64,000 nucleotides of DNA from an uncultured SAR86 cluster bacterium (lineage in GTDB: Bacteria; Pseudomonadota; Gammaproteobacteria; Magnimaribacterales; AG-339-G14): NCBI GenBank assembly GCA_902560275.1, contig CACELJ010000001.1, positions 883 through 64,882 on the forward strand, in the 5' to 3' direction. The notes under the pieces are model-generated. The model saw nothing but the letters and a program-made list of their open reading frames with translations, was not told where the DNA came from and made no database searches. Position 1 is the first letter of the stretch. The number at the start of each line of letters is the position of its first letter. The translations under genes were made by a program, and so were the position numbers. Below are positions 21,486 to 42,676 of the stretch, piece after piece.

Positions 21486-21499
21486 TCTTTAAATAAAGA

Positions 21500-21536
21500 A
21501 AAAGCCTCTTTAAATTATGGAAAGAGGCTTTTTTTA
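21500..21536 (+). terminator. rho-independent terminator after the first TonB-dependent receptor
   Basis: AAGCCTCTTT (21502-21511) pairs with AAAGAGGCTT (21521-21530), followed by a T run. Confidence 0.8.
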
Positions 21537-21680
21537 TATCTAAATATTTGATCAAAAATGCAATAAAAACGTTTAATTTTGTCTTAATTTGCTATAGATT
21601 AACGTTAATTAGTCTAAGTTGGGAGACTTAGAAACAATTACAAGGAAGTTTCAAACTCAAAACAAAAAAAGGGGAATGTT

Positions 21681-24600: not shown

Positions 24601-24695
24601 GCATTGGCCTTGGTGATGCTTCAGTAGGCCAAACTAGAGGAGTTACTGTTAGAGATCCTCAAGTCTTTGGAATTAGAGTTGGTTACAATTTCTAA
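21681..24695 (+). CDS. TonB-dependent receptor (1004 aa), paralogue of 26520..29573
   Basis: Signal peptide, EEVTVTSQRQEQSLQDVPLAV, FDMERIEVIRGPAGTLFGRN, and terminal ...VGYNF. Confidence 0.9.
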   Translation: MSIKKISVPFLFLALIFTGFSISQDNALEEVTVTSQRQEQSLQDVPLAVTAFDADDLLEQQIEEASDLQLVVPGLTFAPTAFSGGGGFDIRGITNLAVSASADAGVAIHMNDLAMGSTTLQDGTFFDMERIEVIRGPAGTLFGRNSVGGAINMITAKGDTSGFYGNASIDIADYNGLKTTSTFNIPLDDTVALRLATSSLKRDGYMENIYSVQKDQDIDGRNQFAYRATLTFEPTDNTTIHVIHSAEIEDSTRTLGGNVYCKRDTSFVTGCTRTSERAFELTHPMGTYVENLMVAMGVLDFTTTTDMSGAPQGFRQVNTRGSSLYQVDQYTTQLLIEHSVDDIDISIGAHSKDRKFLRMSSYSSPEMQTLRFKNTAATPGGLINMSGYGPGCDLDAGTLGAYGGCVMDTINYPTGGDRPEADVDTKVLELKVSSSFDGNVNFLAGYTYYDNASITLYDVYASGLDVLAQAPPALLAGPAAALGAQLYPSLYRTNDKGTIESQAVFGELYYEPREDLKLTFGLRYNEDEKTSLSRIAFVNVLGFSKGRATDLGVNLLTEGAIPTAAAFEAFACGNLEQGFCPLLGSVPDYGEAYIATTGLDPYMEFSAMTGRFVVDYFVDENSMIYVNLSKGFKGGGFNPALDPLIFPNTPQIFPASDLISLEFGFKTEFPEQGVRLNGAVYAYDAENYHITKIMNKTSINEGIDVDIMGLELELLYAPPSVPGLALNASLAMTESTIADGVSALDPVQPDGAFSGHPDSKNWHLMKDELSTMYIMRKDALQAVYGAWLQETLTGGAAQTGLDAIEVLTAGATTTADLMAALIPAEFHGDRTYGQPTPVSYLVPALGLTPAEGHLPSLGVQAGMRTMAQLMGFDPAAVVSEGLETDISGNSLVHPDSSANIGISYTAQAGSVNVTTRLDVAYQGARYVRIFNLPEDQIDSWLESNLQITVTPANDDSWYVQFYGQNITDELNVTGIGLGDASVGQTRGVTVRDPQVFGIRVGYNF

Positions 24696-26403
24696 TTTTA
24701 GAAAATATCTGCAAAAAACCCTGATTTTTATCGGGGTTTTTTGTATCTTATTTTCTTGTTCTTACGGACAAGACTCATCAATCATCACTATTCAGCAAGG
24801 TAAATTAAAAGGCTTGGAGCATGATGATGGCACTATAAAATATTTTGGTATCCCTTATGCGAAAGCTCCAGTTGGCAATCTTCGTTGGAAGGAACCTTTG
24901 CCTCATGAAGGATGGGAGGGAACTTTTTTTGCAGAATCTCATGGTAAAGCATGCATGCAGCCACTTGAATTATTGACTCCTGATGGAAAACTGACTGGCA
25001 ATAATGGTTTTTACGATCTTATTATAGAAAAGTCAGGCTTAGATATTCCATCTGATGAATCTCAAAATAATGCAGGATTTAATCGTTTTACATACGATGA
25101 TATGTCCGAGGACTGTTTATTTCTAAACATTGTTGTTCCTAAAGGCGGCTCTGCTAACAAACCGGTAATGTTTTGGATCCATGGCGGAGCTTCAAGGTGG
25201 GGGTCTGGGCATGAAAGTAATTACACAAGTCAATATATTCCCACAGAGGGGGACGTCATCGTGGTGAGTATAAATTATCGACTGGGGGTTTTTGCCTGGT
25301 TGGCTCATCCAGAATTATCAAGAGAGTCAGAAAAAAACGTTTCTGGAAATTATGGAACTTTAGATCAAATAGCAGCTCTAAAGTGGGTTAAAGATAATAT
25401 TGCAAATTTTGGTGGAGACCCAAACAACATAACCATTTTTGGTGAATCGGCTGGGGGACAAGCTGTGACGTCTTTGATGATAAGTCCATTATCGAAAGGA
25501 TTGTTTCACAAAGCCATTGCTCAAAGTGGCACCGGATTACCGAATGTTTTAACTGATATCAGAGAAGATAAAGGGATATTAGTTTCCGCCGAGTCAAAAG
25601 GTATCAAGTTAGCTGAATATTTTTTAGGAGAAAATGCCAATATAAATGATTTAAGGGAATTGCCAGCCCTGGAAATTGTTTCCATTGATGATTTCCAACT
25701 CGATCAAGACTTAATTATGATGACAAATCAAATTGTTGACGGATATGTTTTCCCTGAATCTATAAAAGATGCTTTTATAAATCAAAATGTCCACGATTTA
25801 CCTTTTATGGTCGGATTCAACGGAGATGAGGGGACAAGCCTATTTCCATTGATTATTGATCCAAAAACTTTCAGTTTATTCGGCGAGTTTTGGCCTGAAA
25901 GTCTTTGGGCTTTTGTTAACCCTGATCCATCATCCTTCCAAGGTCCAAAAGGAATGAGAGATTTTGCATTAAGCTTGGATGACAATTATTACGATGCTGC
26001 AACGGATTTCTGGGGATTTTTATTTTTTGGTGCTCCCTCTTATTTTGTTGCAAAGCAACATTCATTATCTGGAAATCCGACTTATCTTTATCAATTTGAT
26101 AAGAAACCTAATATTCCTAATGATTATCTTGGCGCCACGCATGCTCTTGAACTTGGTTATCTATTTAATAAAGGCGGATTATTCGGCATAGAAGGATCTT
26201 TTGATGATTCTGATATTGAACTTGCTCAGAAAATGCGAGCGGATTGGATTAATTTTGCAAAAAATGGCTCTCCAAATATTGCCGAAAGATTTGATCATAT
26301 CAGTTCGAATGCAAGAATTTATGACTCTTTCATTGAAGATAAGAAAATAGAGCACTCTGATTTTTATAAGTCCTACTCAAATTTTTGGGAAAATCTAAAT
26401 TAG
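24667..26403 (+). CDS. carboxylesterase type B family, probable lipoprotein (start uncertain: TTG 24667 or TTG 24679)
   Basis: EDCLFLNIVVP, WIHGGA, and nucleophile elbow FGESAGG. The N-terminus LIFIGVFCILFSCSYGQ looks like a signal peptide with a lipobox Cys. Confidence 0.85.
   Translation: MELELVTISNFRKYLQKTLIFIGVFCILFSCSYGQDSSIITIQQGKLKGLEHDDGTIKYFGIPYAKAPVGNLRWKEPLPHEGWEGTFFAESHGKACMQPLELLTPDGKLTGNNGFYDLIIEKSGLDIPSDESQNNAGFNRFTYDDMSEDCLFLNIVVPKGGSANKPVMFWIHGGASRWGSGHESNYTSQYIPTEGDVIVVSINYRLGVFAWLAHPELSRESEKNVSGNYGTLDQIAALKWVKDNIANFGGDPNNITIFGESAGGQAVTSLMISPLSKGLFHKAIAQSGTGLPNVLTDIREDKGILVSAESKGIKLAEYFLGENANINDLRELPALEIVSIDDFQLDQDLIMMTNQIVDGYVFPESIKDAFINQNVHDLPFMVGFNGDEGTSLFPLIIDPKTFSLFGEFWPESLWAFVNPDPSSFQGPKGMRDFALSLDDNYYDAATDFWGFLFFGAPSYFVAKQHSLSGNPTYLYQFDKKPNIPNDYLGATHALELGYLFNKGGLFGIEGSFDDSDIELAQKMRADWINFAKNGSPNIAERFDHISSNARIYDSFIEDKKIEHSDFYKSYSNFWENLN
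24713..24742 (+). terminator. terminator-like hairpin just after the stop of the second TonB-dependent receptor
   Basis: AAAAAACCCTG (24713-24723) pairs with CGGGGTTTTTT (24732-24742). It lies inside the putative signal-peptide coding part of the next ORF. Confidence 0.6.
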
Positions 26404-26519
26404 ATTATTGACTTACTCAAAGAAATAATTTTAGAAAAATATAAATTCATTTAATTTTTCTCTTTTTTAGGATAGATTACTTTTTTAAATTTAACGATTT
26501 ATTCTAAACAAGGAGCGTT

Positions 26520-29500
26520 ATGCATAAATTTTCAATTAATTTAATACTTTTCTATTTATTTTTCTCTTCACCCTTCGCAATTGTCCAAGATTCTGATGGA
26601 TTAGAAGAAATTATTGTAACTGCGCAAAGACAAGAACAAAGTCTGCAAGACGTTCCTTTAGCAGTATCTTCATTCTCTGGAGATGATCTATTGGAGCAAC
26701 AGATCGAAGGAATTAATGACATGCAATTGTTTGTTCCTGGACTTAGGTTTGGTGGAAATATTGGTGAAGGTGGAGGAGATATTGAAATAAGGGGAATGGT
26801 GAATGGAGCAGTATCAGGTACAGCAGATTCAGCAGTTGGAGTTCATATTAATGACTTAGCAGTGGGAATAACACCTCTTGATACTGGCCAGCTTTTTGAT
26901 ATGGAAAGAGTTGAGATAATCAGAGGTCCTGCAGGAACTTTATATGGAAGAAATGCTATTGGTGGATCATTGAATATGATTACGGCAAAAGCAGATCCAA
27001 CTTCTTTTTCTGGGAAAGTTAGTGTTGATCTTGGAGATTATGGAAGATTTGGCACTACTTCAGTTATAAATATTCCTCTTGATGACAATGCAGCCTTTAG
27101 ATTTGCTTCAACAACTTTGAAGCAAGATGGCCTAGTAGATAACATTTATAGCAAAGGACTCGATTATAACTTGGATAACAGAAATCAAATGGGATACAGA
27201 GCTACCCTAAGTTTCGAACCTTCTGAAAAAACTACAATTCATATTGTTCATCAAGCTCAGATTGAAGATTCAAAAAGAACGCTTACTTCAGGAACTTGGT
27301 GTGACAGAGATCCTTCCGCAGTCTTTGGTTGCACAATGCAAGCACCTGAAAATCAAAAATTTGAGATTGCGCATCCCATGTCCACGTTAGTTGAACAACT
27401 TCTCATAGCACAAGGAGTTTTAAACTACACTCCGATAACTAGTCTGGCTGGAGCTCCTCAAGAATTATGGACGATGAACGTCAGAAACGAACCTGTATAT
27501 ACCGTTGACGAATATATTACTCAATTCATCGTAGACCATGATATAAATGACGAACTATCCTTATCTGTTGCTGCGAGCAGAAAAGATAGAAAGTTTTATA
27601 GGTTAGAGGCTTACGAATCTCCAGAGTTAGATACATTAAGATTTAACGATACTCCCGTAACTCCTGGCGGTATTGGAACTATGTCTGCAAGTATCGATTC
27701 AAATTGTTCAGTCGAAGGCTACACTGCTGGTTTTTATGGTGGATGCATTTTGGATACACTGAACTATCCTACAGGAGCATTTAACTATAGTTCTCTGGCT
27801 GATACGGATGCAGTTGAAATGAAACTAGTTTCTAGTTTTGATGGACCTCATAATTTTCTATTCGGTATGAATTATTTTAAAAATTATCAAGATACGGATA
27901 CAGATGTTGTGGCTTCTGGTCTAGATGCATTAACTGTGGCTCCACCTGCAGCAATGATAGGTACTCAAGCAGCTAGTCTTGGAGCACAACTTTACGCACC
28001 ATTTTTTAGAACAGCCAATATCGATGTAATAGAATCAACCGCCGTATTTGGTGAATATTACTTTGATGTGCGTGACGACCTAAAATTAACCGTTGGCATG
28101 AGATACACAGATGACTTTAAAGAAGCAGGTCCGAGTAATCCGTCATTTAATATATTAGGTTACGCCAAAGGTAATATCACAGATGCTGCAGCTTCAGCTT
28201 GGACTGGTGGATTAGTTCCATCTGCCGCAGCCTGGGAAGCTTTATTTTGTCCTATAGGCGCCACTTTTTGCCCAGTTCCAGAATCCGCTATTCCTGGCAA
28301 CAAAGTTCCCGCACCAGGAGAAGCTTACAGAGCAGCAGGGCTAGAAACCACTAGAGAAACTTCAGAATTTACTGGAAGGATTGTTTTAGACTACTTTATA
28401 AATCAAGATTCAATGATGTTTGTTTCCTTTTCCACTGGATTCAAAGGCGGTGGGATTAATCCTGGGTTTGATCCTACAAGTTTTGCTGGCGTTCCAACTG
28501 GATTTCCAAATTCAGAAGTAAATAATCTTGAAATAGGTTTCAAAAATGAATTCCCAGACCAAGGGGTAAGACTTAATGTTTCTGCTTACTATAGTGATAT
28601 TGAAAATTACCATATCACACAAATTAAAAATAGAACCTCAGTAAACGAGGGTATTGATGTTGAAATCATGGGTGCCGAGGCTGATTTACTTTACATGCCA
28701 CCTGAAGTCCCTGGTTTTTCCCTGAATGCTTCTCTCAGTTATACATCTTCTGAGATCAATGATGGAGAAGGTTCTATTGATATGGTTAATAGAGATTTAC
28801 AATTAACAGGAGGAGTAGGCTCAACTGATTGGCACACTGTTAAAGATCAAGTTTCAGAAACTTTTATCATCAGAAAAACTGCTTTGCAGGCCATGTGGAC
28901 TAGTTATTTACAAGAGATAGCAACCTCTGGTGCAGCAGTGACTCCTGCAGATGGCATATCTGCCTTAAATCCAACTCTTGACGGTTTAACCCTTGCAAGT
29001 TTGGTGTTTTTTAATCCCGTTGAACATCACGGTGATAGAACTTTTGGAGAACCAACTCCAGTAAGCTATTGGAACCCATTAGCTGGTCAAAACCCTGCTG
29101 ATGGTCATCTACCCTCGGTATTAAATAGAGCTTCAGGCCTTCACCAGATTCTAGCTCAACTGCATGGATTTGATCTGGTTCCTGGTTCTGATATTAGTGA
29201 AGGTTTAGTGAGTGATGTTTCAGGTAATTCTTTATTTCATCCCGAACTGCAAGCTAATCTTGGTATAGGATACTTACAAGATATTGGAAATCTAAAAATT
29301 AATTATCGTCTGGATTATTCATATCAGGGAGAAAGATATTTAAGAGTATTTAATCTTCCAAGTGACGTCCTAGAGGCTTGGGATGAGTTAGGCGCCCAAA
29401 TTACTCTATCTAGTTCAGATGATTCTTGGTTTGTTCAATTTTATGGACAAAACATAACTGACAACAATAGCTATTATTATAGAGAACTTCAAAGTACCGC

Positions 29501-29573
29501 TGTAGGAAACTATCAGAGGATAATGGCTAGAGAAAGGGCTAGATATGGAATAAGGCTTGGTTATAATTTTTAA
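26520..29573 (+). CDS. TonB-dependent receptor (1017 aa), paralogue of 21681..24695
   Basis: EEIIVTAQRQEQSLQDVPLAV, FDMERVEIIRGPAGTLYGRN, VQFYGQNITD, and terminal ...LGYNF. Confidence 0.9.
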   Translation: MHKFSINLILFYLFFSSPFAIVQDSDGLEEIIVTAQRQEQSLQDVPLAVSSFSGDDLLEQQIEGINDMQLFVPGLRFGGNIGEGGGDIEIRGMVNGAVSGTADSAVGVHINDLAVGITPLDTGQLFDMERVEIIRGPAGTLYGRNAIGGSLNMITAKADPTSFSGKVSVDLGDYGRFGTTSVINIPLDDNAAFRFASTTLKQDGLVDNIYSKGLDYNLDNRNQMGYRATLSFEPSEKTTIHIVHQAQIEDSKRTLTSGTWCDRDPSAVFGCTMQAPENQKFEIAHPMSTLVEQLLIAQGVLNYTPITSLAGAPQELWTMNVRNEPVYTVDEYITQFIVDHDINDELSLSVAASRKDRKFYRLEAYESPELDTLRFNDTPVTPGGIGTMSASIDSNCSVEGYTAGFYGGCILDTLNYPTGAFNYSSLADTDAVEMKLVSSFDGPHNFLFGMNYFKNYQDTDTDVVASGLDALTVAPPAAMIGTQAASLGAQLYAPFFRTANIDVIESTAVFGEYYFDVRDDLKLTVGMRYTDDFKEAGPSNPSFNILGYAKGNITDAAASAWTGGLVPSAAAWEALFCPIGATFCPVPESAIPGNKVPAPGEAYRAAGLETTRETSEFTGRIVLDYFINQDSMMFVSFSTGFKGGGINPGFDPTSFAGVPTGFPNSEVNNLEIGFKNEFPDQGVRLNVSAYYSDIENYHITQIKNRTSVNEGIDVEIMGAEADLLYMPPEVPGFSLNASLSYTSSEINDGEGSIDMVNRDLQLTGGVGSTDWHTVKDQVSETFIIRKTALQAMWTSYLQEIATSGAAVTPADGISALNPTLDGLTLASLVFFNPVEHHGDRTFGEPTPVSYWNPLAGQNPADGHLPSVLNRASGLHQILAQLHGFDLVPGSDISEGLVSDVSGNSLFHPELQANLGIGYLQDIGNLKINYRLDYSYQGERYLRVFNLPSDVLEAWDELGAQITLSSSDDSWFVQFYGQNITDNNSYYYRELQSTAVGNYQRIMARERARYGIRLGYNF

Positions 29574-29583
29574 TTGAGAATAA

Positions 29584-29613
29584 AAAAAGACCCTGCTTCG
29601 GCAGGGTTTTTTT
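29584..29613 (+). terminator. rho-independent terminator after the third TonB-dependent receptor
   Basis: CCCTGC (29591-29596), TTCG loop, GCAGGG (29601-29606), then a T7 run. Confidence 0.85.
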
Positions 29614-29660
29614 ATTTAGAGGGTATATTTATTATAAAATATATCTAAAGTCTTTTTGGA

Positions 29661-30674
29661 ATGATTAAACACATCAACAATATTGCTGGAATCTTAATTC
29701 TTCTTAATATTTTTGATCAGATTTTGTCGTCTAGCAAAATTATTCCTGAAAATTTCTATTTTGATATATTTGTTATAGCTTCTTATCTTTTTTTTGGTGC
29801 TGAATTTATTGCAAGAATTATCATTGAAAGAAGATTCTCTTTCCTGTTAGTTTTTGATTTTGTGGTTCTGGCTAATTATATTTTCTTTGGATTTTATGAT
29901 TTGAGAATATTAAGAATTTTTAGGGCTTATTCAATTTACAGTAATCATAAGATGTTACTTCCAACAAATACTTTGTTGAGAACTGTGTATAACCAGCGTT
30001 TAGCATTATTAGGGTCCCAGATAATGGTATTTTCAGTCCTTTTGATTTTTTCTACTTTAATTCACTTTATAGAAAGAGATATTAACCCAGAATATTTTGG
30101 TTCTATTCTCAATTCAATGTGGTTTGGAATTGCTACTTTAACCACAGTCGGTTATGGAGATGTAACTCCATCATCTCCATTAGGCCAAGTTCTGACTTCT
30201 TTAACTATGTTTCTGGGTATAGGTATGTTTGCTTTACCTGCTGCAATCTTAGCCTCAGCCTATTATGAGGAAATTCAAAAAAGAAACTTCCTTATCACAA
30301 TGGAAACAATATCCAGTATCCCTCTATTTTCAATGTTACCCATAGGGGCTTTGAGTAAAATTAACGATAAATTAGTTGCTGAAATTTATCCGGCCAAAAG
30401 AAAAATTATAGAAAAAGGTGATGAGGCAGATTGCATGTACATTATTGAGTTTGGATCTGTTCAAGTAGAAATAGAATCTCCTGTGACTTTAGGGCAGGGT
30501 GATTATTTTGGTGAAAAAGGAATTCTTTCTAAAGAAGTTCGTAATGCATCTATAAGCTCTATAGAAGAAGTGAAATTACTTTCTCTGTCAAAAGATGATT
30601 TAGAAGAACTAATGGAAGATTATCCTCATCTTTTTGAAGAGCTAGAAAAAGTTAGTTTAGACAGAAAAGGTTAA
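29661..30674 (+). CDS. cyclic-nucleotide-gated K+ channel (6-TM, MloK1-like)
   Basis: K+ selectivity filter TTVGYGD. S4-like LRILRIFRAY. C-terminal cNMP-binding domain with GDYFGEKGIL...VRNASI (FGE and the phosphate-binding Arg). Confidence 0.85.
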   Translation: MIKHINNIAGILILLNIFDQILSSSKIIPENFYFDIFVIASYLFFGAEFIARIIIERRFSFLLVFDFVVLANYIFFGFYDLRILRIFRAYSIYSNHKMLLPTNTLLRTVYNQRLALLGSQIMVFSVLLIFSTLIHFIERDINPEYFGSILNSMWFGIATLTTVGYGDVTPSSPLGQVLTSLTMFLGIGMFALPAAILASAYYEEIQKRNFLITMETISSIPLFSMLPIGALSKINDKLVAEIYPAKRKIIEKGDEADCMYIIEFGSVQVEIESPVTLGQGDYFGEKGILSKEVRNASISSIEEVKLLSLSKDDLEELMEDYPHLFEELEKVSLDRKG

Positions 30675-31423
30675 TTAAAAGAATAAGAAAACTTTGTACT
30701 AAGACCTTGATCATCTTCAACGGCGTTAGTAATAGGATCTGAATCGTATGCTATATCGTATTGAAGGCTGATACTAAATTTTTCATTTACCAGAAAGTTA
30801 AATGCCATAAGAAAACTTGCTTTATAGTCACTGAAATCACTGACTCCCGGTTGATAATAAATCGTAGTGTTAAAGTTTACATTTTCAGCAACTTCAAAAT
30901 TATCATGAAAATAAGCAGAAAGCCTTGTTGTATTTGTTACAAAGTCGTCTAAATCAGTTTCTTCTTCATATATCACTCCAGCTCCAAATCTCATTTGATC
31001 ATCTATAATCATTCTAAGACCAGTCCCAAATAAATTTCTTTCTCTAAAAAGCCTAAATGGATTTTTCGCTGACTGAATAAAGAATTCTGTATTGTACTGA
31101 TTGTAAGTTTCGAAAACTGATCTTATATGAATGAGTTGAGAAATATCCGTGACGTTTTGATTTATTTTCCTTTCAGATTTTCTCAGAATCATGAAGTTTT
31201 CAACGTCATCAAGGTTATAGTCAAACCTTAAATCAAAAGAATAGAAATCTCTGTCTCTGTTACCTCTGGAAGCATTTAAAGAAAATCCAAGGCCAGCAAA
31301 AAATCCTTCCTTACCCTCATTTCTTAACTCTTCAATATTCACTATAGTCTGAGAAATAGCAAATGAGGGCAAGAGTAATGAAATAAAGAAGAATTTATTT
31401 AGTTGTTGCAACATACGCTCCAT
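30671..31423 (-). CDS. outer-membrane beta-barrel protein, DUF481/YdiY-like
   Basis: Signal peptide followed by alternating-hydrophobic strands. It resembles YdiY in LNASRGNRD and the C-terminal ISLQYDIAYDSDP...FSYSFN. Its start overlaps the upstream cyclase stop. Confidence 0.55.
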   Translation of the reverse strand: MERMLQQLNKFFFISLLLPSFAISQTIVNIEELRNEGKEGFFAGLGFSLNASRGNRDRDFYSFDLRFDYNLDDVENFMILRKSERKINQNVTDISQLIHIRSVFETYNQYNTEFFIQSAKNPFRLFRERNLFGTGLRMIIDDQMRFGAGVIYEEETDLDDFVTNTTRLSAYFHDNFEVAENVNFNTTIYYQPGVSDFSDYKASFLMAFNFLVNEKFSISLQYDIAYDSDPITNAVEDDQGLSTKFSYSFN

Positions 31424-33578
31424 TCCAATTCGGATCAGTTAAATTAAGTTTCATATCCTTAATCCTGTCTTTAAAAATAGCGTAGTATAAATCAAACTCC
31501 ACAACTTGTTCTTCCCATTTTTTAATAAAGTTTAATGCTAGATCCCATCGTTGGTTTCTATAATTCTCTAGAAATTTATTATGATCATTTTGAAATTCAA
31601 TTAATTCTTCATCATCTAATGAGAATTTATCAAAAGAAGTATAAATTTTAACTGGCTCAGTTTTCCCTTTAACTTGAATAAAGTCTAGTTCAAAAAGATT
31701 AGATTTTGACTTGAGGGTATTCACAGTTTCTTGTCCAAGAATTCTTTGAAAACCATAAGTTCCTGATTGACCTTCTAATCTTGACGCCAAATTAACTGGA
31801 TCTCCTAAGACGGTATAATCAAATCTTTTTTCTGATCCCATATTCCCAACAATACATTCACCAGTATTAATACCAATTCCGATTTTAAGTTCCATTCCTT
31901 TTTCTTTTTGGAATTCAATATTAAAGTTTTCTAACGCCTTTTCCATATCAAAAGATGCTTTTAGAGCTAAATCCGTATGATTTTCTTGATCTGTAGGTGC
32001 ATTCCAGAATGCCATGATGCAATCACCCATATATTTATCAATTGTTCCTTCATTATCCAAAATTTCATTAGACAAAACTGTAAGAAGTTTATTTATCAGT
32101 TCAGTTAATTCTTCTGGATTAGATTTGTAACTTTCTGATATAGCTGTGAACCCTCGTATGTCAGAAAAAAGAAAAGTCATAGTTTTCTTCTCTCCTCCCA
32201 ATTTAAGTGATTCACTTGATTCTGCAAGTCTCGAAACCATTTCTGGAGCAAGATATTGAGAAAAAGCTGTTCTAACTTTACTACGTTCCAACTCAGTAAA
32301 AAGAAAATTAAAAAATGTGATTATCAAGTAACTCAATAAACATATTATTAATGGAGAAATTGGATCTATTAAAAAATCTAATTGATTGAAACCATAGAAA
32401 GAACCATAGAGACTACTTAAATTTGCCACTAAGAATGTAATTAATCCCCCGATAGGTCCAAAATATTGAATGACCAAGCAAATCAAGATGGAAAAAAGTA
32501 AACCAAATAAAAATTCTGCTCCTTCCATCCAATCTGGTCTTACTAAAAAATCTCCATTTATAATTTGTTGAATGCCTTGAGCTATGATTGTTACGCCAGG
32601 TATATCTCGCTCTAAAGAGGTATTTCTTATGTCGAGCAGTCCAGACGCGCTAGTTCCTATAAGAACAATTTTTCCAGCAAAGAAATCTTTATCAAAAGAA
32701 TTATTTATGACTTTAGCCGCAGGAATGATATTCAAGTTTTCCTTATAAGTAGAATGCAACCAAAGGTAACCGTTTGAATTAGTGGGAATAATTACGTTTC
32801 CTAATTTTATGTTATTAATCCCAGTGCTCTCACCAAACGCTAACTCTCCTGATGCATTTGATGACTTGATTTGATAAGTACTTGCTCCGATAGCAACCCT
32901 AAGGGTCTCTAGCATCAACGAAGGTACTATCTGTCCATTCACTACTTCAAATGTGGGGAGGCTTCTAACAATACTTGAATCACCCCCAATACTCATAGAC
33001 CCTATGCCCGCCGCAGAATCAACTAGAGACGGTAAGTTATTTTGCATTCCTATGTAATTAGGAAGAAATTCATTTGGTGAATCACCCTGAATTATTAGAC
33101 CGTATTTAGGTTTTACTTCTAAGGTTTTTAATTTATTATTTGGTGCACTTCCTAAGACAACAGTAGAGTGTGACTCCATAGATTCAGCAAATATTTTGTC
33201 GTTTGGCTTTATCTTTTTTAACTCTTTAATTAGTTCTGTATTTGTTGAATATTGTTCAGTTAGAACATCACTTCCAGTTCTATCTCTTTCTGCAAAGACG
33301 ATATCAAATGATGTAGTTAAAGCTCGCTCTGTGTTACTCACTAATTGAGAAAGAAGATCTCTTGACCAAGGCCATTGACCTAAACTATTGAGAGACTCAT
33401 CATCAATATCAATTATTACTACTGGATCGTCCTCTAAAGGTTCTCTTGGACTTATTTGTTGTAGAGTATCAAAAGCAAATAATCTTAAATCATTAAAAAT
33501 ATTTAATGGATTTGCTAATGGAATTAGACCAATTAAAATGGCTAAAGGCAGAAGTAATTTTTTTTGAATGTTCTTCAT
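31395..33578 (-). CDS. CHASE2-domain sensor adenylate cyclase (class III)
   Basis: N-terminal TM helix, a ~330-aa periplasmic region and a TM cluster give the CHASE2 architecture. Cyclase core motifs: TFLFSDIRGFT, IDKYMGDCIMAFWNAP, IGINTGECIVGNMG, DYTVLGDPVNLASRLE. Confidence 0.85.
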   Translation of the reverse strand: MKNIQKKLLLPLAILIGLIPLANPLNIFNDLRLFAFDTLQQISPREPLEDDPVVIIDIDDESLNSLGQWPWSRDLLSQLVSNTERALTTSFDIVFAERDRTGSDVLTEQYSTNTELIKELKKIKPNDKIFAESMESHSTVVLGSAPNNKLKTLEVKPKYGLIIQGDSPNEFLPNYIGMQNNLPSLVDSAAGIGSMSIGGDSSIVRSLPTFEVVNGQIVPSLMLETLRVAIGASTYQIKSSNASGELAFGESTGINNIKLGNVIIPTNSNGYLWLHSTYKENLNIIPAAKVINNSFDKDFFAGKIVLIGTSASGLLDIRNTSLERDIPGVTIIAQGIQQIINGDFLVRPDWMEGAEFLFGLLFSILICLVIQYFGPIGGLITFLVANLSSLYGSFYGFNQLDFLIDPISPLIICLLSYLIITFFNFLFTELERSKVRTAFSQYLAPEMVSRLAESSESLKLGGEKKTMTFLFSDIRGFTAISESYKSNPEELTELINKLLTVLSNEILDNEGTIDKYMGDCIMAFWNAPTDQENHTDLALKASFDMEKALENFNIEFQKEKGMELKIGIGINTGECIVGNMGSEKRFDYTVLGDPVNLASRLEGQSGTYGFQRILGQETVNTLKSKSNLFELDFIQVKGKTEPVKIYTSFDKFSLDDEELIEFQNDHNKFLENYRNQRWDLALNFIKKWEEQVVEFDLYYAIFKDRIKDMKLNLTDPNWNGAYVATTK

Positions 33579-33615
33579 CTTTTTTTAATAAAACCTTTAT
33601 AATTGACGCCTTGTC

Positions 33616-34938
33616 ATGTTTGTCAGATATATTTTATTACTATTTATCTTCAGTTTAAGTTTCTCTGCTTTAGCGCAAAACGTACCTCCGACTATATCGG
33701 ATCCTGAACAATTAGAAACCATTAGAAAAGAAAGGCAAGCTATTTTTGATGAATTAATCGAGGATCCAACTAATCAGGGAAATTTATTCAAATACGCCAA
33801 TCTATCAATTATTTTAGGAGATTTAGAGGCAGCGATTGGGGTTTTTGAACAAATGCTTATTTACGATCCTACTTTGGCAAGAATTAGGCTAGAACTTGGA
33901 GTGCTGTACTTTAGACTAGAGGCATATGCTCCAGCAAAATTATATCTAGATAGCGTAATAGATTACGATCCTCCTGAAGAAGTGATCACAAAAGTTGAAT
34001 CTTTCTTAGCTGCCATTGAAGAGCAAGAAAAGCCTGTAACGGTTAATCAATTAATGACTTTTGGGTTTGCTAGTTCTTCTAATGCAAATGCTGGTATAGA
34101 TGCAGACATCATTGAGATAGCAGGTTTTCCTCTTGAGGTATCTCCAGATTCAAAACCACAGTCGGATTCAAAATTTTCTGTCAATTACAATTTGTCTTTA
34201 ACTCAAAATTTGAATAATCCCCGCGGTGACGCAATCAATTATTTTCTTGCAGTTGCTACCACTTATCAATCTAGGTTTACGCAATTTGATCAAAGAAGTT
34301 TCGTTTTTGGTTTAAATAGTCGTTTAGATGTAGAAGAGGGCAGATTTGGAATTTTGAAGAATCCATCCGTCACTCCAAGCTTCACAAGAATTCAAGTTTA
34401 TCTATCCGGAGAGCCTTTGCTCGAATCAAATGCTTTCAGCGTGAGTCATTCTGGATCCTTAACAAATGGTTCTGTTTTTGAATACGGTTTTAACGTAGAT
34501 AAAAGGAATTTTATAGGGTTAGATGCAAAAAGCGGTTACAGATACGGAACTTTTGTAAATAACACTTTTAATTTACCAAATAATAGCTCTAGTTGGACTA
34601 TGAATATTTTCTCTGATAAATATGAAGCCAACCAAAAATTTGAATCGTTTAGACAATGGGGTTTTGGTTTTAATTACAGAATGCCTCTTCCGGATGCATG
34701 GATTATGGCTGCTAATTATGATTTCTCTACTAAAAATTACCTTGCACCTAACGGACCACTTGGAACAAGAAAAGATATTAACGAATCATCAGATTTAACC
34801 TTTTCAAGACTTTATATAAATTGTTTATCTATGAATATTTTTATTAAACCTTTTGATAATAGAAGCAGCATTGATATTTTCTCAAGAAGTAACACCGATG
34901 TAGGTGTCAATCTTTCTTATCTTTGCTTAAATAACTAA
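33616..34938 (+). CDS. TPR-containing outer-membrane beta-barrel protein (DUF560/Slam-like?)
   Basis: Signal peptide, TPR-like helices (GDLEAAIGVFEQMLIYDP, LELGVLYFRLEAYAPAKLYL), then ~300 aa of beta-strand-like sequence rich in N/S/G/Y. Confidence 0.45.
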   Translation: MFVRYILLLFIFSLSFSALAQNVPPTISDPEQLETIRKERQAIFDELIEDPTNQGNLFKYANLSIILGDLEAAIGVFEQMLIYDPTLARIRLELGVLYFRLEAYAPAKLYLDSVIDYDPPEEVITKVESFLAAIEEQEKPVTVNQLMTFGFASSSNANAGIDADIIEIAGFPLEVSPDSKPQSDSKFSVNYNLSLTQNLNNPRGDAINYFLAVATTYQSRFTQFDQRSFVFGLNSRLDVEEGRFGILKNPSVTPSFTRIQVYLSGEPLLESNAFSVSHSGSLTNGSVFEYGFNVDKRNFIGLDAKSGYRYGTFVNNTFNLPNNSSSWTMNIFSDKYEANQKFESFRQWGFGFNYRMPLPDAWIMAANYDFSTKNYLAPNGPLGTRKDINESSDLTFSRLYINCLSMNIFIKPFDNRSSIDIFSRSNTDVGVNLSYLCLNN

Positions 34939-34970
34939 CCTTAAAATTTACTTGAGTATATAATCCGCAA

Positions 34971-35696
34971 ATGAATCAAATAGTCCAATTTTTTCTAAAA
35001 ATCAGAAATAGTCGCTTTTTTAATGGAATAGTAATTTTTGTAATAATTGGCTCTGCTATTTATGCCGGAGTCAGTTCCTACGACCTTTCGGAAGAATACG
35101 TTGGATTGCTAAATTTTCTTGATACCGCAATAACAGTTTTCTTCCTAGTAGAGATTATTATCAGAATAGTCGCAGAAAGATCACTGATAAAATTCTTTAA
35201 AGGCGGTTGGAATGTCTTCGATTTCATCATCGTTACGGTCAGTTTAATTCCAATCACCGGAGGAGAGACAGCATTCGTTGCAAGACTGCTTAGAATTGTC
35301 AGGGTATTAAGAATTATCACCGTAGTGCCTGCATTGAAGAAAATTGTCGATGCGTTGTTTGAAACGCTTCCAAGAGTTGGTTTTGTGGCTCTTCTAATGT
35401 TCATTTTCATATATATATGGGCTGCTATAGGAACTTTAGTTTTTGGAACAACAGATCCAGAACATTGGGGTAATATTGGTCTAGCTATGCTTACTCTTGC
35501 GCAAGTTGCTACATACGATGACTGGGCTGCAGTTATGAAAGATATAATTGAAGTTTTTCCTTGGGTATGGATTTACTTTATTAGTTTCATTCTTCTTAAT
35601 GCCGTAATCATGTTGAATATGGTCATTGGTATCATTGTTGATGTAATGTCTAAGAAATCTAGCAGCGGCCAATTAAGTGCAGATGAGAATCAATAA
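34971..35696 (+). CDS. voltage-gated cation channel, BacNaV (NaChBac/NavAb) family, with a T-Y-D-D-W pore filter
   Basis: 241 aa with 6 TM segments. S4 is ARLLRIVRVLRIITVVPALKKIV, with four Arg at every third position. The pore is LTLAQVATYDDWAAVM. S6 is ILLNAVIMLNMVIGIIVDVM. Confidence 0.8.
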   Translation: MNQIVQFFLKIRNSRFFNGIVIFVIIGSAIYAGVSSYDLSEEYVGLLNFLDTAITVFFLVEIIIRIVAERSLIKFFKGGWNVFDFIIVTVSLIPITGGETAFVARLLRIVRVLRIITVVPALKKIVDALFETLPRVGFVALLMFIFIYIWAAIGTLVFGTTDPEHWGNIGLAMLTLAQVATYDDWAAVMKDIIEVFPWVWIYFISFILLNAVIMLNMVIGIIVDVMSKKSSSGQLSADENQ

Positions 35697-35925
35697 TTTT
35701 CTGATCCTTTTTCTATTTTTATCTTTATCTTCATGCACCTATCAAAAGGTAGTTAAGAACTCTATGTATGATTTAAATGAATTTGATGCATGTTATTTAG
35801 ATTATAAATCTGTCTTGGACTCCGACAAACAGAAGTATCTAAATATGCTGATAGAGTTAAGAAATTATAATTGTTCTCGATACTACGAACTTTTTGTGAG
35901 AGGAACAATTATTCAGGGTAATTAA
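35677..35925 (+). CDS. small putative lipoprotein
   Basis: MQMRINNFLILFLFLSLSSC carries a lipobox LSSC. Length is 82 aa. It overlaps the channel gene's 3' end by 20 nt. Confidence 0.5.
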   Translation: MQMRINNFLILFLFLSLSSCTYQKVVKNSMYDLNEFDACYLDYKSVLDSDKQKYLNMLIELRNYNCSRYYELFVRGTIIQGN

Positions 35926-37703
35926 AACCAAAATATCAGGAGCAGCGGTGTTGAAATGGCTATTATGAGTAATTCTAACGGTAGACCTAATTTCCAGTAA
36001 TCGCCAAATTTATAATTACCTGGTCCCATTACCAAAGTGTTACATTGATGTCCGATGGGAGATAAGAAGGCACAACTTGCACCTATGGCAACACACATTA
36101 AAAATGGCTCAGAAGGATGACCTAACTGATTTGCAATTGTGACTGATATAGGTCCCATAATAACTGCAGTCGCTGCATTATTAATGACATCAGATAGACA
36201 CATTGTGGCTACCATCAAAATAACAAGGGTGCCAACTAAACCAAATTGAATAGATTGAGTAGCTATTACGGTTGCTAATATATTTGTAAGACCACTGTCA
36301 TATAGTGCATCGCCTATAGGAATCATAGCTCCAAGCAATACAATAACAGGCCATTCAATATGACGATAAAGCATATTTGGTTTTAGTAGTTTAGACGCAA
36401 CAAATGCTAAAACGCATAGTAAAAATGCTATGACGACATTTAAAAAATTTGTGATAACCAAAAGTAAACTAAAAGAAAATAACCCTAACGAAAGTAAAAC
36501 TTTAGAATCATCCTTTATTACATCTAACTCTCTTTGCCAAAGAGGCATCAAACCAAGATCTTGCATTTTATCACTGGTATCTTTTTGTTCTTCTCTAGTA
36601 GCAATCAACAACACATCTCCAGCCTTGAAATGTTCGTTTGAAAGGCTTCCTTGAAAATTTGTACCTTTTCTCCACAATCCAAGAACAGCCATCTGTCTCC
36701 CGACCATATTTGAAAAATAGCTTATAGTTCTACCTATTAATCTTGACCCTGGAGATATCATGGTTTCAATTTCACCAAAGCTTCCCGAATCAAGATCTTT
36801 AATTTCGGTTCTGAGAGAAAGACCATACTTATCTTGTAGTCCTGATACTTCCTCTGGATTTATTTTCAAAAGTAGAATTTGAGATTCTTTTAATTCCTCA
36901 AAATTACTTAAAATTTCCCTGGCATCAGATGTTTCATTTACTGAACCAATGAGTACTGTGTCAGAACCTAGTTCCTTCCTGAATTCTTGAGTTTTTTTAC
37001 CTATAAGATCGCTATCTTCATCAATCACAAGCTCAACTAAATATTCATTAATATCAACTAAAGAAGATGAATCACTATCACCAGATCTATTTTTTACAAG
37101 AATGAAGCCAAGTAATGCGATAAAAATCACGCCTCCGATACTCACAGGTAACCCTGCATAGGCAAAATCAAAAAATTCAAACCCTTGGTCGGAGTATTGG
37201 TCCCTAAATTCGGAAATAATAATATTTGGAGGCGTTCCAATTTTTGTATTCATACCCCCAAGAATTGACGCAAAGGCAAGAGGCATCAAAAATTTAGAAG
37301 GGGACCAGCCCATTTTCTGACATATTCCTAAAGTTACAGGTAATAACATAGCCATAGCACCAATGTTATTCATAAAAGAGGATAAAATGACGGCAATACC
37401 CATCAATATGACTAAGAACTGAAATTCACTATTAGCAATTTTCTGCAAAAGATTGCCAATTTTCCCTATCAGTCCTGATGCTTCTAGGCCTTTACTAATC
37501 AATAAAACAAGCGCAACTGTAATAACTGCTGGATGTCCAAACCCTACAAATGCTTCTTTAGCTGGAACAAAACCAAGAACCACTAAAACTGCAAGACTTG
37601 TCAATGCTACTGCATCATAACGAAATCTGCCCCAGATAAACATAGCAACCATAACTAAGAGTATGGCCGAAAGGATGATTTGATTAGTATCCATAAAAGA
37701 CAA
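35922..37703 (-). CDS. SLC13/DASS-family anion permease with central TrkA-C (RCK_C) domains
   Basis: 593 aa. Two hydrophobic halves flank a ~200-aa soluble insert (LVELVIDEDSDLIGK...; GEIETMISPGSRLIGRT...), typical of YbiR/YfbS-type transporters. Confidence 0.75.
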   Translation of the reverse strand: MSFMDTNQIILSAILLVMVAMFIWGRFRYDAVALTSLAVLVVLGFVPAKEAFVGFGHPAVITVALVLLISKGLEASGLIGKIGNLLQKIANSEFQFLVILMGIAVILSSFMNNIGAMAMLLPVTLGICQKMGWSPSKFLMPLAFASILGGMNTKIGTPPNIIISEFRDQYSDQGFEFFDFAYAGLPVSIGGVIFIALLGFILVKNRSGDSDSSSLVDINEYLVELVIDEDSDLIGKKTQEFRKELGSDTVLIGSVNETSDAREILSNFEELKESQILLLKINPEEVSGLQDKYGLSLRTEIKDLDSGSFGEIETMISPGSRLIGRTISYFSNMVGRQMAVLGLWRKGTNFQGSLSNEHFKAGDVLLIATREEQKDTSDKMQDLGLMPLWQRELDVIKDDSKVLLSLGLFSFSLLLVITNFLNVVIAFLLCVLAFVASKLLKPNMLYRHIEWPVIVLLGAMIPIGDALYDSGLTNILATVIATQSIQFGLVGTLVILMVATMCLSDVINNAATAVIMGPISVTIANQLGHPSEPFLMCVAIGASCAFLSPIGHQCNTLVMGPGNYKFGDYWKLGLPLELLIIAISTPLLLIFWF

Positions 37704-37921
37704 GATACTTTACATTAAGTTATTTCAATTAGCATGATAGATTTCTGCTTTTTAAAAATCTTATCAATCTTTTATAAATTAAGGCTTTTTAACCTCAAAT
37801 ATAGTAAAATTATCATTAGAAGTAAGTTTTTGTTAGTTTGACTAAGTGTCATTTTGACAATAAAATTCCTTTTTTTTCTTAATAATGAGAAAAATAAAGG
37901 AAAACTTCATGGAGTGGGTTT

Positions 37922-38398
37922 ATGAAGATAGTAAACATGAAAAAATTTAACAAAGTATTGATCCTTCCTTTGTTAGTATTTGTTCTAGCAAACTGCGCTG
38001 GAACGAATGTTACAACTTATTCATCTGCATCAATTATGCTTGATGACTTTATTGAGCAAAATGGTGGTAAAGGTGAAGTTAACGATGAAACATTGCACTA
38101 TCCTTTAGATATTCAGACTTTGTCTTGTTCAGAAATGCAAGCAAACAGGATAAGAATTTCTAATTTAATCAATAATTTATCTGAAAAAGTAGTAGAAAAC
38201 GCTAACAGAAGTACTAGTTACTCTACCTATGGATTAACAAAACATGATCCATTGATCGGAACAAGTTTTATCGGAATTAGCTCTGTAGGATTGAATCCTG
38301 AAGTTACAGAATATAGAAAACTCAAATTAGTGTTAGAAGAACTTAACACTACTTCTATCCTCAAGTGTACTCCACCTGAGGTAATGAGAACTCCGTAA
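37922..38398 (+). CDS. hypothetical lipoprotein
   Basis: Signal peptide with lipobox LANC and GGAG 7 nt upstream. I recognised no family. Confidence 0.5.
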   Translation: MKIVNMKKFNKVLILPLLVFVLANCAGTNVTTYSSASIMLDDFIEQNGGKGEVNDETLHYPLDIQTLSCSEMQANRIRISNLINNLSEKVVENANRSTSYSTYGLTKHDPLIGTSFIGISSVGLNPEVTEYRKLKLVLEELNTTSILKCTPPEVMRTP

Positions 38399-39408: not shown

Positions 39409-40098
39409 TCAATCGTATGTTTTTGCTACTGATGTCATATTCAATCTTACTAAAGATCTAAAATTATCAGCTCTAGTTAAAAACTTTGCATACGCTTTAT
39501 TAGGAGCAGGATTATTTACAGACTCCATTGCTGTCGCAAGGTCTGGATAACCACAATACGCCATATGCGTACCGTATTTTTCAGGATTAGTTCCAGGCCC
39601 GAAAGATGCGACTCCCCAAGAACTTGGACACTGACCATTTGAAGTTTGCTCTTCCATCAATTCTGTATAAGCTTTCACGTAAGCTGAAGGATCAGTAACA
39701 TTAAGTAAGAAGACAGTGAAAACCTGATCTTTCATTACATCTCCTCCTCCAACTACTGGAAATCCTAAAGCTTGATTTGTTTGCTCAGATATAGAACTCA
39801 TTGATTGAAAATATTTTCCCCAACCTGGGCAAGTTTGAACTTGGTTAGACCATTCAACATAATCTGCATTATTCTCATAAAAAACAACGTAAGTATGTGT
39901 TGTGTCATCATCTCCGTTTAAATTTTCAGCCATTAATCTAACTACAGTATCATTTGGACAATCTTTGGTTAATTGATCTGTAGCTTGAACTACTCCAATA
40001 GGATTTTCTGTTTTTATTCCAAAAAATCCAAAAAATGGTCCGTCTCCAGCAATTAAAGGTATGCTCAGAAAACTAATTAAAATTAATATTTTTTTCAT
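39409..40098 (-). CDS. secreted two-repeat protein, uncharacterised family, paralogue 1
   Basis: I prefer the start at Met13 (MKKILILISFLSIPLIAG) because AGGAGA lies upstream. It aligns with 41114..41842 and 45086..45811 (see findings). Confidence 0.6.
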   Translation of the reverse strand: MKKILILISFLSIPLIAGDGPFFGFFGIKTENPIGVVQATDQLTKDCPNDTVVRLMAENLNGDDDTTHTYVVFYENNADYVEWSNQVQTCPGWGKYFQSMSSISEQTNQALGFPVVGGGDVMKDQVFTVFLLNVTDPSAYVKAYTELMEEQTSNGQCPSSWGVASFGPGTNPEKYGTHMAYCGYPDLATAMESVNNPAPNKAYAKFLTRADNFRSLVRLNMTSVAKTYD

Positions 40099-40219
40099 AA
40101 TATCTCCTATATTAACTTCACTAATATATAACATTAGTAATATTCATAAAATAGAATTAATGTAAATATTGTGCAAAATATTTAAAATATTAATTATTAA
40201 TTTTTAAAAGGGAGTGGTG

Positions 40220-41113: not shown

Positions 41114-41842
41114 ATGAAAAAACTATTAATTTTAGTTTCTTTGATTATCACTTCATATTCTCATGCTGCTCCAATTTGGGCAGAGTTTCAAATAGAAGTC
41201 GATGATCCAATAAAAGCAGCAAGTATTGCTGCTGCAACTGACAGATACATGAAAAGTGATTTTGTTAAAAAAAACTTTAATGGGTCTGTACACTTGAATG
41301 TATATGTATCTAATGGAGATAATCCAGCAACACATTCCTTAGTTTGGCTATTTCCAAGCATGACTGATGCATCTGTTTTTCAAACTAAATCATTAGATCC
41401 TTCAAATAGAGCTTCGCAAGAATTTTTTAGTGCTCTAAGTCAAAATTCTGAAGCAACTTCAGATTTAATGCATACCTTTGTCACTTCTTGGGGAAATGCC
41501 TCCAATAAAGACAGAGTTTGGGAGATTCACAATTTTTATGCCACTGATGCAGGAAAGGTTGTCAATCTTACCAATAAAATGATGGCTTCCATGGATGGGT
41601 TCCCAGGGCAGCTTGGTCTATCACAAAATACCTATGGAAATGGCGATACTTCTCACGCATTTACTGTTGGATTCGAATCTATTGAAGAAATGGAAGGTTG
41701 GCAAGATAAGTTAGCAACAGATCCGGTCTTTAATAAATGGCTTGTTGATATGGGTAAAGTTGTAGAATGGAAGGGCTCTGAATTAGTGGTAAATGCTGCT
41801 GTTTATGACTCTGCATTAACTATAGAAGAATTCGTTCAATAA
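41114..41842 (+). CDS. secreted two-repeat protein, uncharacterised family, paralogue 2
   Basis: Signal peptide MKKLLILVSLIITSYSHA. It has the same length and repeat pattern as paralogues 1 and 3. Confidence 0.6.
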   Translation: MKKLLILVSLIITSYSHAAPIWAEFQIEVDDPIKAASIAAATDRYMKSDFVKKNFNGSVHLNVYVSNGDNPATHSLVWLFPSMTDASVFQTKSLDPSNRASQEFFSALSQNSEATSDLMHTFVTSWGNASNKDRVWEIHNFYATDAGKVVNLTNKMMASMDGFPGQLGLSQNTYGNGDTSHAFTVGFESIEEMEGWQDKLATDPVFNKWLVDMGKVVEWKGSELVVNAAVYDSALTIEEFVQ

Positions 41843-41853
41843 GATCAGCTTAT

Positions 41854-41885
41854 AAAAATACCCGTTTTTGACGGGTATTTTTTTT
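41854..41885. terminator. bidirectional rho-independent terminator
   Basis: AAAAATACCCG (41854-41864), N7, then CGGGTATTTTTTTT (41872-41885). Confidence 0.8.
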
Positions 41886-42621: not shown

Positions 42622-42676
42622 TTTTCAATCTAAATGGATGTTATATTCAAAAAATAGGAGATAAGTAAATAACAAA

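Follow-up and report, generated by a model that had tools for sequence, protein, structure and literature searches.

Does a bacterial receptor adenylate cyclase encoded almost side by side with a cyclic nucleotide-gated (CNG) K+ channel use that channel as its effector, and which of the genes around the two belong to the same unit? The question is raised by a compact locus (positions 29661..35925) in a 64,000-nt stretch of DNA from an uncultured SAR86 cluster bacterium, the whole of which was analysed and is called the window here. Few heterotrophic clades of the surface ocean are as abundant as SAR86. To our knowledge, prokaryotic CNG channels such as MloK1 have served as structural models, and we know of no established physiological role or upstream signal for them; likewise, we know of no defined direct ligand for CHASE2, the widespread sensor domain carried by the cyclase. 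A sequence-only reading of the locus had joined six open reading frames (ORFs) into one module, running from the CHASE2 cyclase through the K+ channel to a voltage-gated cation channel, with two outer-membrane barrel proteins attached. All six ORFs, with their coordinates, overlaps and gaps, were reproduced in the ORF list, and the domains called for them were confirmed by Pfam and, for the barrel of a 440-amino acid (aa) protein, by an AlphaFold2 model. The analysis described below favours a smaller unit: with a probability of roughly 0.6, we propose that the locus holds a SAR86-specific, vertically inherited envelope-to-membrane cyclic AMP (cAMP) cassette in which the K+ channel is the dedicated effector of the cyclase. 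The core of this cassette would consist of three proteins, namely a Slam-like protein combining tetratricopeptide repeats (TPR) with an outer-membrane barrel, the CHASE2 class IIIb cyclase and the MloK1-type K+ channel.

Functional residues of the cyclase and the K+ channel

The receptor adenylate cyclase gene (31395..33578, minus strand) encodes a protein with Pfam matches to CHASE2 (PF05226; 146.9 bits, residues 22-364) and to the catalytic domain Guanylate_cyc (80.4 bits). Hydropathy placed hydrophobic segments at approximately residues 10-28 and 356-428, consistent with a predicted order of N-terminal transmembrane (TM) segment, periplasmic CHASE2 domain, TM bundle and cytoplasmic catalytic domain. 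The protein could be aligned to class III cyclases such as CyaB of P. aeruginosa (PDB 3r5g), and in the CyaB alignment both metal-binding Asp motifs (FSDIRGFT and DKYMGD) were present, while the Lys (DKYMGD) and Thr (RFDYTVLGD) of the subclass IIIb pair fell opposite DKFVGD and MDYTIIG of CyaB. The transition-state Asn and Arg were found in VNLASRLE (N-x-A-x-R-x-E). The class IIIb pair that had been claimed for this protein is therefore present in the alignment, and its catalytic residues appear intact. Among distinct cyclase orthologues, FSDIRGFT and DKYMGD were kept in 58 of 59 and the pattern RFDYT..G..VN.A.R.E in all 59, with a ratio of nonsynonymous to synonymous divergence (dN/dS) of 0.04-0.06.

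The K+ channel gene (29661..30674, plus strand; Pfam Ion_trans_2, Ion_trans and cNMP_binding) encodes a 6TM protein with a TVGYGD selectivity filter and a C-terminal cyclic nucleotide-binding domain (CNBD). Its closest PDB match was MloK1 of Mesorhizobium loti (2zd9, E=3e-44; also represented by 3beh), and the alignment ran end-to-end, to the last residue. The two channels have in common the 6TM plus C-terminal CNBD architecture, the GYGD filter, the FGE motif with its Arg and the C-terminal Arg; they differ in that the filter of MloK1 reads TTGYGD and that the S4 helix of the SAR86 channel carries three Arg. Ligand-contact residues of the CNBD were kept relative to MloK1 (SAR86/MloK1: FGE/FGE, R-N-A-S/R-S-A-T and, at the C-terminus, D-R-K-G/E-R-R-G), including both the phosphate-binding-cassette Arg and the C-terminal lid Arg, so that the MloK1-like CNBD attributed to this channel by the sequence-only reading is borne out at the level of predicted contacts. 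The TVGYGD filter was found in 51 of 52 distinct orthologues, and FGE...R-N-A in the orthologues listed.

Adjacency to a cyclase was also considered as a general trait of the MloK1 family and was rejected. In Mesorhizobium and Rhizobium, the ±8 kb around MloK1 orthologues contained no cyclase, in contrast to the linkage in SAR86, and thus the pairing is not generic to the channel family.

Conservation of the arrangement across SAR86

The cyclase gene is separated by a 37-nt divergent spacer (33579..33615) from the gene for the Slam-like protein (33616..34938, plus strand; 440 aa). A scan of one genome per species with an alignment of the Slam-like protein yielded 58 loci, nearly all of them from SAR86-cluster single-cell or metagenome-assembled genomes. 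Components were tabulated by tblastn and phmmer over these 58 loci and 12 metagenome loci, with ±10 kb of sequence covered per locus, and fractions refer to non-redundant loci with enough flank. The cyclase lay beside the Slam-like gene, in divergent orientation, at 53/56 loci, and the K+ channel was nearby at 50/52. Among the other genes found near the Slam-like gene were those for a DUF481 outer-membrane protein (51/52), an MscS channel (32/52), a DASS transporter (33/42) and the S4 voltage-gated channel (21/34).

Between lineages, protein identities were as low as 37-46% (Slam-like protein) and 51-61% (cyclase and K+ channel), and the flanks varied by lineage, with TonB-dependent receptors in the clade of the window and TauD or ExoI/DASS elsewhere. 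Three loci (L024, L031 and L035) had the genes for the K+ channel, MscS and DUF481 on the opposite side of the Slam-like gene, with linkage kept. The genes of the module had dN/dS values of 0.01-0.07, indicating strong purifying selection, at a synonymous divergence (pS) near saturation; the window shared 98% protein identity with the locus of AG-914-F13. Such an arrangement is far beyond chance, given that it persists across SAR86 at protein identities of 37-60% between flanking genes that vary. Loss of the neighbourhood in related genomes would have counted against the sequence-only reading; it was kept across approximately 60 SAR86 loci.

Joint absence of the cyclase block and the K+ channel

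A set of 30 loci carrying the DASS, MscS and S4 channel genes allowed the presence of the remaining genes to be compared at loci of the same type. All nine loci with the cyclase also had the K+ channel and the Slam-like gene (9/9), and all 21 without the cyclase lacked both (21/21). In a concatenated tree, the full-module loci L049, L047 and L067 formed a group with the cyclase-less locus L123 (100% bootstrap), and a further three groups lacking the cyclase each had support of their own (96-100% bootstrap); together, these placements require at least two independent events.

Comparison of L123 with L049 by blastn showed that the two were collinear at ~80% identity, save for two separate gaps. 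The first gap comprised the K+ channel gene only, and the second comprised the cyclase, the Slam-like gene and a giant gene that follows the latter in most lineages. The MscS and DUF481 genes, which lie between the two gaps, were retained in L123, as was the S4 channel gene, and no gene remnants were seen at the deletion scars. The same deletion pattern was found in L125, in which DUF481 was also lost. Under either polarity, independent insertions or deletions change the K+ channel and the cyclase block jointly, and we would regard this co-change as the strongest non-experimental evidence obtainable here that the two may form one functional unit. Since the S4 channel, MscS, DASS and in part DUF481 were retained without the cyclase, they are not dependent on the cAMP unit. 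Thus, the link from cyclase to K+ channel put forward in the sequence-only reading is supported both by the linkage at 50 of 52 loci and by repeated co-loss through separate deletions.

The proposal that the two outer-membrane barrel proteins form one unit with the cyclase held for one of them: the TPR-barrel (Slam-like) protein was always co-lost with the cyclase, whereas DUF481 survived in 5 of the 21 cyclase-less loci, where it lay 5' of MscS.

The Slam-like protein and the giant FecR/cadherin protein

The 440-aa protein has an N-terminal signal peptide, and its AlphaFold2 model (mean predicted local distance difference test score, pLDDT, 82) contained 14 beta-strands C-terminal to TPR helices that span residues 30-137. 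Pfam and NCBIfam searches gave no match for the barrel part, with TPR the only Pfam assignment, and a Foldseek search of the model against the PDB gave generic barrel or TPR-barrel matches only (BcsC, CymA, OmpG and PelB; TM-scores ~0.4). SlipAM (PF04575) had no match in the window protein and matched 4/18 members of the family (best E 1e-3), and TPR_Slam matched 8/18 members weakly (best E 6e-3). A family profile search recovered 1221 relatives at E≤1e-10; when 61 full-size distant relatives were examined, 19 matched Pfam SlipAM (DUF560; best E 9e-13) and 10 matched TPR_Slam, and in some of these distant relatives the barrel region itself exceeded the cut-off, as in P0294 (30.7 bits against SlipAM, cut-off 22). 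The protein may therefore be called Slam-like by its predicted architecture, sequence membership being transitive only. With Slam/DUF560 proteins of type XI secretion (PMC8406197) it has in common an N-terminal periplasmic TPR region and a 14-stranded barrel.

In another distant Slam-like relative (P0252), residues 265-345 of the barrel matched Pfam DUF481 at 21.4 bits, just above the cut-off of 21.1 bits. A kinship between the DUF481 and SlipAM barrels is thus possible, and the two outer-membrane proteins of the cassette would then be distant paralogues.

Directly 3' of the Slam-like gene, most SAR86 lineages carry a gene of ~2000-2400 codons, the two often overlapping by 4 nt, and the S4 channel gene comes next. 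The giant protein has an N-terminal FecR domain (Pfam 26.3 bits, cut-off 24) and at least 7 cadherin repeats, and its N-terminal ~210 aa are ~60% conserved between lineages (examples, given as 2200-2400 aa, at L002:1819-8529, L008:11344-18585 and L009:11314-12270). The position of this gene resembles that of a putative cargo gene directly following a Slam gene; however, the putative SAR86 cargo differs from a TbpB-like lipoprotein and its 8-strand barrel in being a giant FecR/cadherin protein, the Slam-like gene is coupled to a cyclase, and in the window the genes 3' of it encode the S4 channel and a small lipoprotein. Second pairs of Slam-like and giant genes were found without a nearby cyclase (L029:10001-11624, L033:3887-6108 and L032:2190-10248), and some of the genomes with such a pair also hold a full cassette (AG-313-N18, in which L033 is the second pair and L039 the cassette). 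These cyclase-less pairs fit a role of the Slam-like protein as outer-membrane partner or exporter of the giant protein. In the clade of the window, the giant FecR/cadherin gene and MscS were both absent, throughout the 64 kb, and the window is a reduced version of the SAR86 cassette.

Two further features of this part of the locus were noted. The interval between the cyclase and Slam-like genes holds one or two small genes in some lineages (L007:9359-9890 and L009:9215-9838), and one of these has a weak match to the TetR_N helix-turn-helix domain. In addition, on one long-read metagenome contig (L007:11344-19401) the giant gene was split into several ORFs and the S4 channel was truncated to 178 aa, while on a near-identical contig (L008:11344-19365) both were intact; the split and the truncation probably reflect an assembly indel error, not pseudogenisation.

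The S4 channel and the surrounding ion-flux genes

The gene 3' of the Slam-like gene in the window (34971..35696, plus strand; 241 aa) encodes a voltage-gated cation channel of the BacNaV family with a single 6TM domain (Pfam Ion_trans, 146.5 bits). Its PDB matches were NavRh (4dxw, 3.5e-62), NaChBac, NavAb and domain II of CaV3, and with NaChBac, NavAb and NavRh it has in common the single 6TM domain, a four-Arg S4 helix and strong homology. The S4 helix reads RLLRIVRVLR, and RxxRxxRxxR was present in 29/29 orthologues checked. The selectivity filter is TYDDW (T181-W185; 35511-35525), not the canonical Na+ filter TLESW, and aligned with TQEDW of CaV3 domain II; all 90 distinct SAR86 orthologues carried it unchanged, whether or not a cyclase was nearby, and the channel as a whole had a dN/dS of ~0.01.

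TYDDW is similar to the engineered Ca2+-selective filter TLDDW(S/A)D, but the third Asp is missing. Acidic filters confer Ca2+ selectivity in NavAb and NaChBac and Ca2+ block in NavPp (PMC7041947), and CavMr, a native prokaryotic Ca2+ channel, is available as a comparison system (PMC7041947). TYDDW was considered as proof of Ca2+ selectivity and was rejected as such, given that NavPp (TLEDWTD) is Ca2+-blocked, not Ca2+-permeable. Since acidic filters act oppositely in NavPp and in NavAb and NaChBac, selectivity is not readable from the sequence of the S4 channel. We therefore place the protein in the BacNaV family without assigning it as a Na+ channel; natively, it may be Ca2+-permeable or Ca2+-blocked.

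The sequence-only reading had placed this channel downstream of the K+ channel as a wired element of the same circuit, and this part of the proposal found no support in that form. Of 34 cyclase loci for which 9.5 kb or more of downstream flank was covered, 13 had no S4 channel. In a reciprocal scan that started from the S4 channel (80 metagenome loci), the upstream neighbour of its gene was the giant gene at 20 loci, the Slam-like gene at six (the clade of the window) and MscS/DASS at 27; at these last 27 of the 53 S4 channel loci no cyclase, K+ channel or Slam-like gene lay within the sequence covered, which at several of them spanned ±10 kb. One such locus (L120) is on a 753-kb contig and has an ExoI-DASS flank identical in type to that of full-module loci. 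Among loci centred on the TPR-barrel gene, the S4 channel tracked the giant cadherin gene (both present at 13 loci, both absent at 10) and not the cyclase. The double dissociation at the locus shows that the S4 channel is a conserved neighbour and at most an optional participant in the cAMP unit.

The DUF481 outer-membrane beta-barrel protein (30671..31423, minus strand) matched Pfam PF04338 at 51.5 bits against a cut-off of 21.1, and has a signal-like N-terminal hydrophobic segment at residues 12-30. In many lineages, an MscS gene lies between the DUF481 and K+ channel genes. The DASS gene is represented in the window by a DASS/CitMHS-type transporter with TrkA-C domains (35922..37703, minus strand; Pfam CitMHS, Na_sulph_symp and TrkA_C, NCBIfam DASS); where it was present at cyclase loci its position was variable, and in cyclase-less loci it adjoins MscS. 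The latter loci took the forms DASS(-) DUF481(+) MscS(+) S4(+) or DASS(-) MscS(-) followed by S4(+) (L120:6131-10735 and L128:6895-10738). In L120, the DUF481 gene overlaps the start of MscS, and in the window it overlaps the cyclase gene.

Proposed pathway and alternative explanations

Under the cassette proposal, an extracytoplasmic cue would pass to CHASE2 via the Slam-like protein, through its periplasmic TPR domain, and where the giant gene is present, as it is in most SAR86 lineages, the cadherin-repeat protein that it encodes would join the relay through its FecR domain. Input to CHASE2 would cause the cyclase to make cAMP, which would bind the CNBD of the K+ channel, and the resulting K+ conductance would alter membrane potential, cellular K+ or both. 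These parts of the pathway are predictions from sequence comparison: passage of the cue from the outer membrane to CHASE2, gating of the channel by cAMP, and the sign and effect of the K+ flux. The cassette would sit within an older ion-flux neighbourhood made up of DUF481, MscS, DASS and the acidic-filter BacNaV-like channel.

Several points weigh against this proposal. The loci are phylogenetically related and the metagenome contigs redundant, so the fractions given above are descriptive and represent neither statistical tests nor independent events. The trees were built by neighbour joining and midpoint-rooted, and the polarity of loss versus gain rests on them. In cyclase-less lineages, the pair could have been relocated in the genome, beyond the ±10 kb covered at each locus, rather than lost. 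No phosphodiesterase family was seen among the genes annotated in and around the SAR86 loci, unlike in the Campylobacterota cluster described below, and the clade of the window is itself without the FecR/cadherin giant, so that the input route proposed is less certain there.

Four other explanations, and an extension of one of them, were weighed against the same evidence. In a full electrical relay, an envelope cue would raise cAMP, the K+ channel would open, and the resulting change in potential would open the S4 channel as an obligatory last step, possibly with Ca2+ entry. The S4 channel gene does end the Slam-like operon in several divergent SAR86 lineages, and the extreme constraint on this channel, with its low dN/dS, intact four-Arg S4 helix and invariant acidic filter, is in favour of the relay; it is also general knowledge that opening a K+ conductance depolarises a cell whose potential is more negative than the K+ equilibrium potential. 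We nevertheless consider an obligatory relay unlikely, given the double dissociation of the S4 channel from the three core genes of the cassette, its tendency to follow the giant cadherin gene rather than the cyclase, and its retention where the cyclase and the K+ channel were deleted. Somewhat more doubtful still is a cascade paralleling eukaryotic olfactory or visual transduction, in which a surface or adhesion cue, received via the Slam-like barrel (and, where it occurs, the giant protein), would activate the cyclase, cAMP would open the CNG K+ channel, and voltage would then gate a Ca2+-permeable TYDDW channel to give a Ca2+ or electrical signal. The locus might instead be an ion and turgor homeostasis island, in which the K+ channel, MscS, DASS and the S4 channel manage K+, osmolytes and potential, and the cyclase tunes K+ release under envelope or osmotic stress. 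This explanation would account for the recurrence of MscS (32/52) and DASS (33/42), for the persistence of the DASS-MscS-S4 set, with or without DUF481, in the absence of the cAMP part, and for a CNNM/CorC gene that adjoins MscS in one lineage. It leaves unexplained, however, the strict coupling of the Slam-like protein (and, in most lineages, of the giant FecR/cadherin protein) to the cyclase, and the clade of the window has lost MscS and keeps the cAMP part. Homeostasis overlaps with the cassette proposal, differing from it mainly on the purpose of the output, and as a separate explanation we judge it to have a low probability, comparable with that of the relay.

The K+ channel could also be a minor or unrelated receptor, perhaps of another ligand, with the cyclase signalling mainly via a cAMP-binding transcription factor encoded elsewhere. 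There is precedent for this in S. meliloti, in which CHASE2 cyclases act via the CRP-type regulator Clr (PMC13001267, PMC5498481), and our view of the genome was limited to 64 kb, in which no second CNBD protein was encoded. Against such an output stand the co-loss of the K+ channel and the cyclase block by separate deletions, their perfect co-occurrence in the 30 loci compared and the cAMP-contact residues of MloK1 that the CNBD keeps, and we regard it as improbable. Inherited synteny without functional meaning seems very improbable: all loci come from one order, SAR86, and shared ancestry does add to the counts, but the flanks differ while the core persists, gene order is rearranged with linkage kept in L024, L031 and L035, the genes overlap, and joint absence arose in at least two independent events, via two separate indels. 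We consequently prefer the cAMP cassette, with the K+ channel as effector, to each of these alternatives.

Relation to known systems

The sensor half of the cassette has described relatives. Campylobacterota carry a cluster encoding a CHASE2 adenylate cyclase, a FecR outer-membrane protein, a TPR protein and a phosphodiesterase (PMC9239204). Both arrangements place a CHASE2 receptor cyclase next to a TPR-domain protein, and a FecR envelope protein occurs in most SAR86 relatives. They differ in that no phosphodiesterase was seen at the SAR86 loci, that the SAR86 TPR protein is fused to a 14-strand, Slam-like barrel, and that the SAR86 FecR protein exceeds 2000 aa, carries cadherin repeats and is absent in the clade of the window. 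Moreover, SAR86 adds the putatively cAMP-gated K+ channel, which is not among the cluster genes in PMC9239204.

In S. meliloti, signalling by the CHASE2 cyclases CyaK, CyaD1 and CyaD2 requires NsrA, an outer-membrane barrel protein (PMC7529298, PMC13001267), and in SAR86 an outer-membrane beta-barrel protein is likewise encoded as a candidate partner of an inner-membrane CHASE2 cyclase. NsrA, at ~1200 aa, is larger than the 440-aa SAR86 protein (the two were compared by description), and the output of the NsrA system is the transcription factor Clr, with no ion channel. A Burkholderia operon encoding a LysM/FecR protein and a CHASE2 histidine kinase (PMC5192318) also sets a periplasmic FecR protein gene beside a CHASE2 sensor; its output is a histidine kinase with a response regulator, without cyclase, channels or outer-membrane barrel.

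The sequence-only reading had regarded the gene combination as undescribed. For the sensor half this did not hold, in view of the Campylobacterota and S. meliloti systems (PMC9239204, PMC7529298), while for the attached K+ channel effector no precedent was found in the literature searched, in which no link of SAR86 with adenylate cyclase, of MloK1 with a cyclase operon, or of a CNG channel with a gene neighbourhood was found. Every part of the cassette comes from a known family, and the pairing of a receptor cyclase with a CNG channel, together with natural knock-outs, appears to be undescribed. The pairing gives bacterial CNG channels a natural signalling partner and a concrete, testable input-to-output pair, with the lineages from which both genes were removed by separate deletions serving as natural knock-outs, and the comparison between lineages separates the cAMP unit from the ion-flux genes next to it. 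The voltage-gated channel, with its unusual invariant acidic filter, merits characterisation of its own.

Other features of the window

Gene spacing at the locus is tight. The stop codons of the K+ channel and DUF481 genes overlap by 4 nt, the start of the DUF481 gene lies inside the 3' end of the cyclase gene (29-nt overlap), and a 32-nt gap separates the Slam-like gene from the S4 channel gene. A scan of 29400-38000 for consensus promoters and terminators was uninformative on operon structure, with promoter-like sites fewer than in shuffled sequence. Rfam and tRNA scans of the whole window gave no matches, and thus no RNA element is involved.

The sixth ORF (35677..35925, plus strand) encodes a small lipoprotein of 82 aa as listed and overlaps the S4 channel gene by 20 nt as listed; translation probably begins at the ATG at 35683, and the overlap would then be 14 nt. 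The ORF was intact in 10/10 loci of the clade of the window, where three Cys, that of the lipobox among them, are conserved, and its non-overlapping part had a dN/dS of 0.05-0.19, indicating purifying selection. It had no Pfam or NCBIfam match and was absent from all other SAR86 lineages in the loci compared. As it is confined to the clade of the window, the small lipoprotein was rejected as a core component.

Immediately upstream of the K+ channel gene are three tandem TonB-dependent receptor genes (18375-29573; 1036, 1004 and 1017 aa), the last two of which encode proteins that are 50% identical and have a carboxylesterase gene (24667-26403) between them. A G+C-rich hairpin (29590-29607) lies between the receptor genes and the cassette. 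On the other side of the locus, two genes at 39409-40134 (minus strand) and 41114-41842 (plus strand) encode ~240-aa proteins with signal-like hydrophobic N-termini and no Pfam match, which are mutually 27% identical (E=5e-8) and are separated by an enoyl-CoA hydratase gene. Beyond these, at 41884-45027, a proteasome-family gene (Pfam Proteasome on the orthologue in L006) stands beside genes for a circularly permuted ATP-grasp protein and an Alpha-E protein, a set that presumably resembles the 'Anbu' operon.

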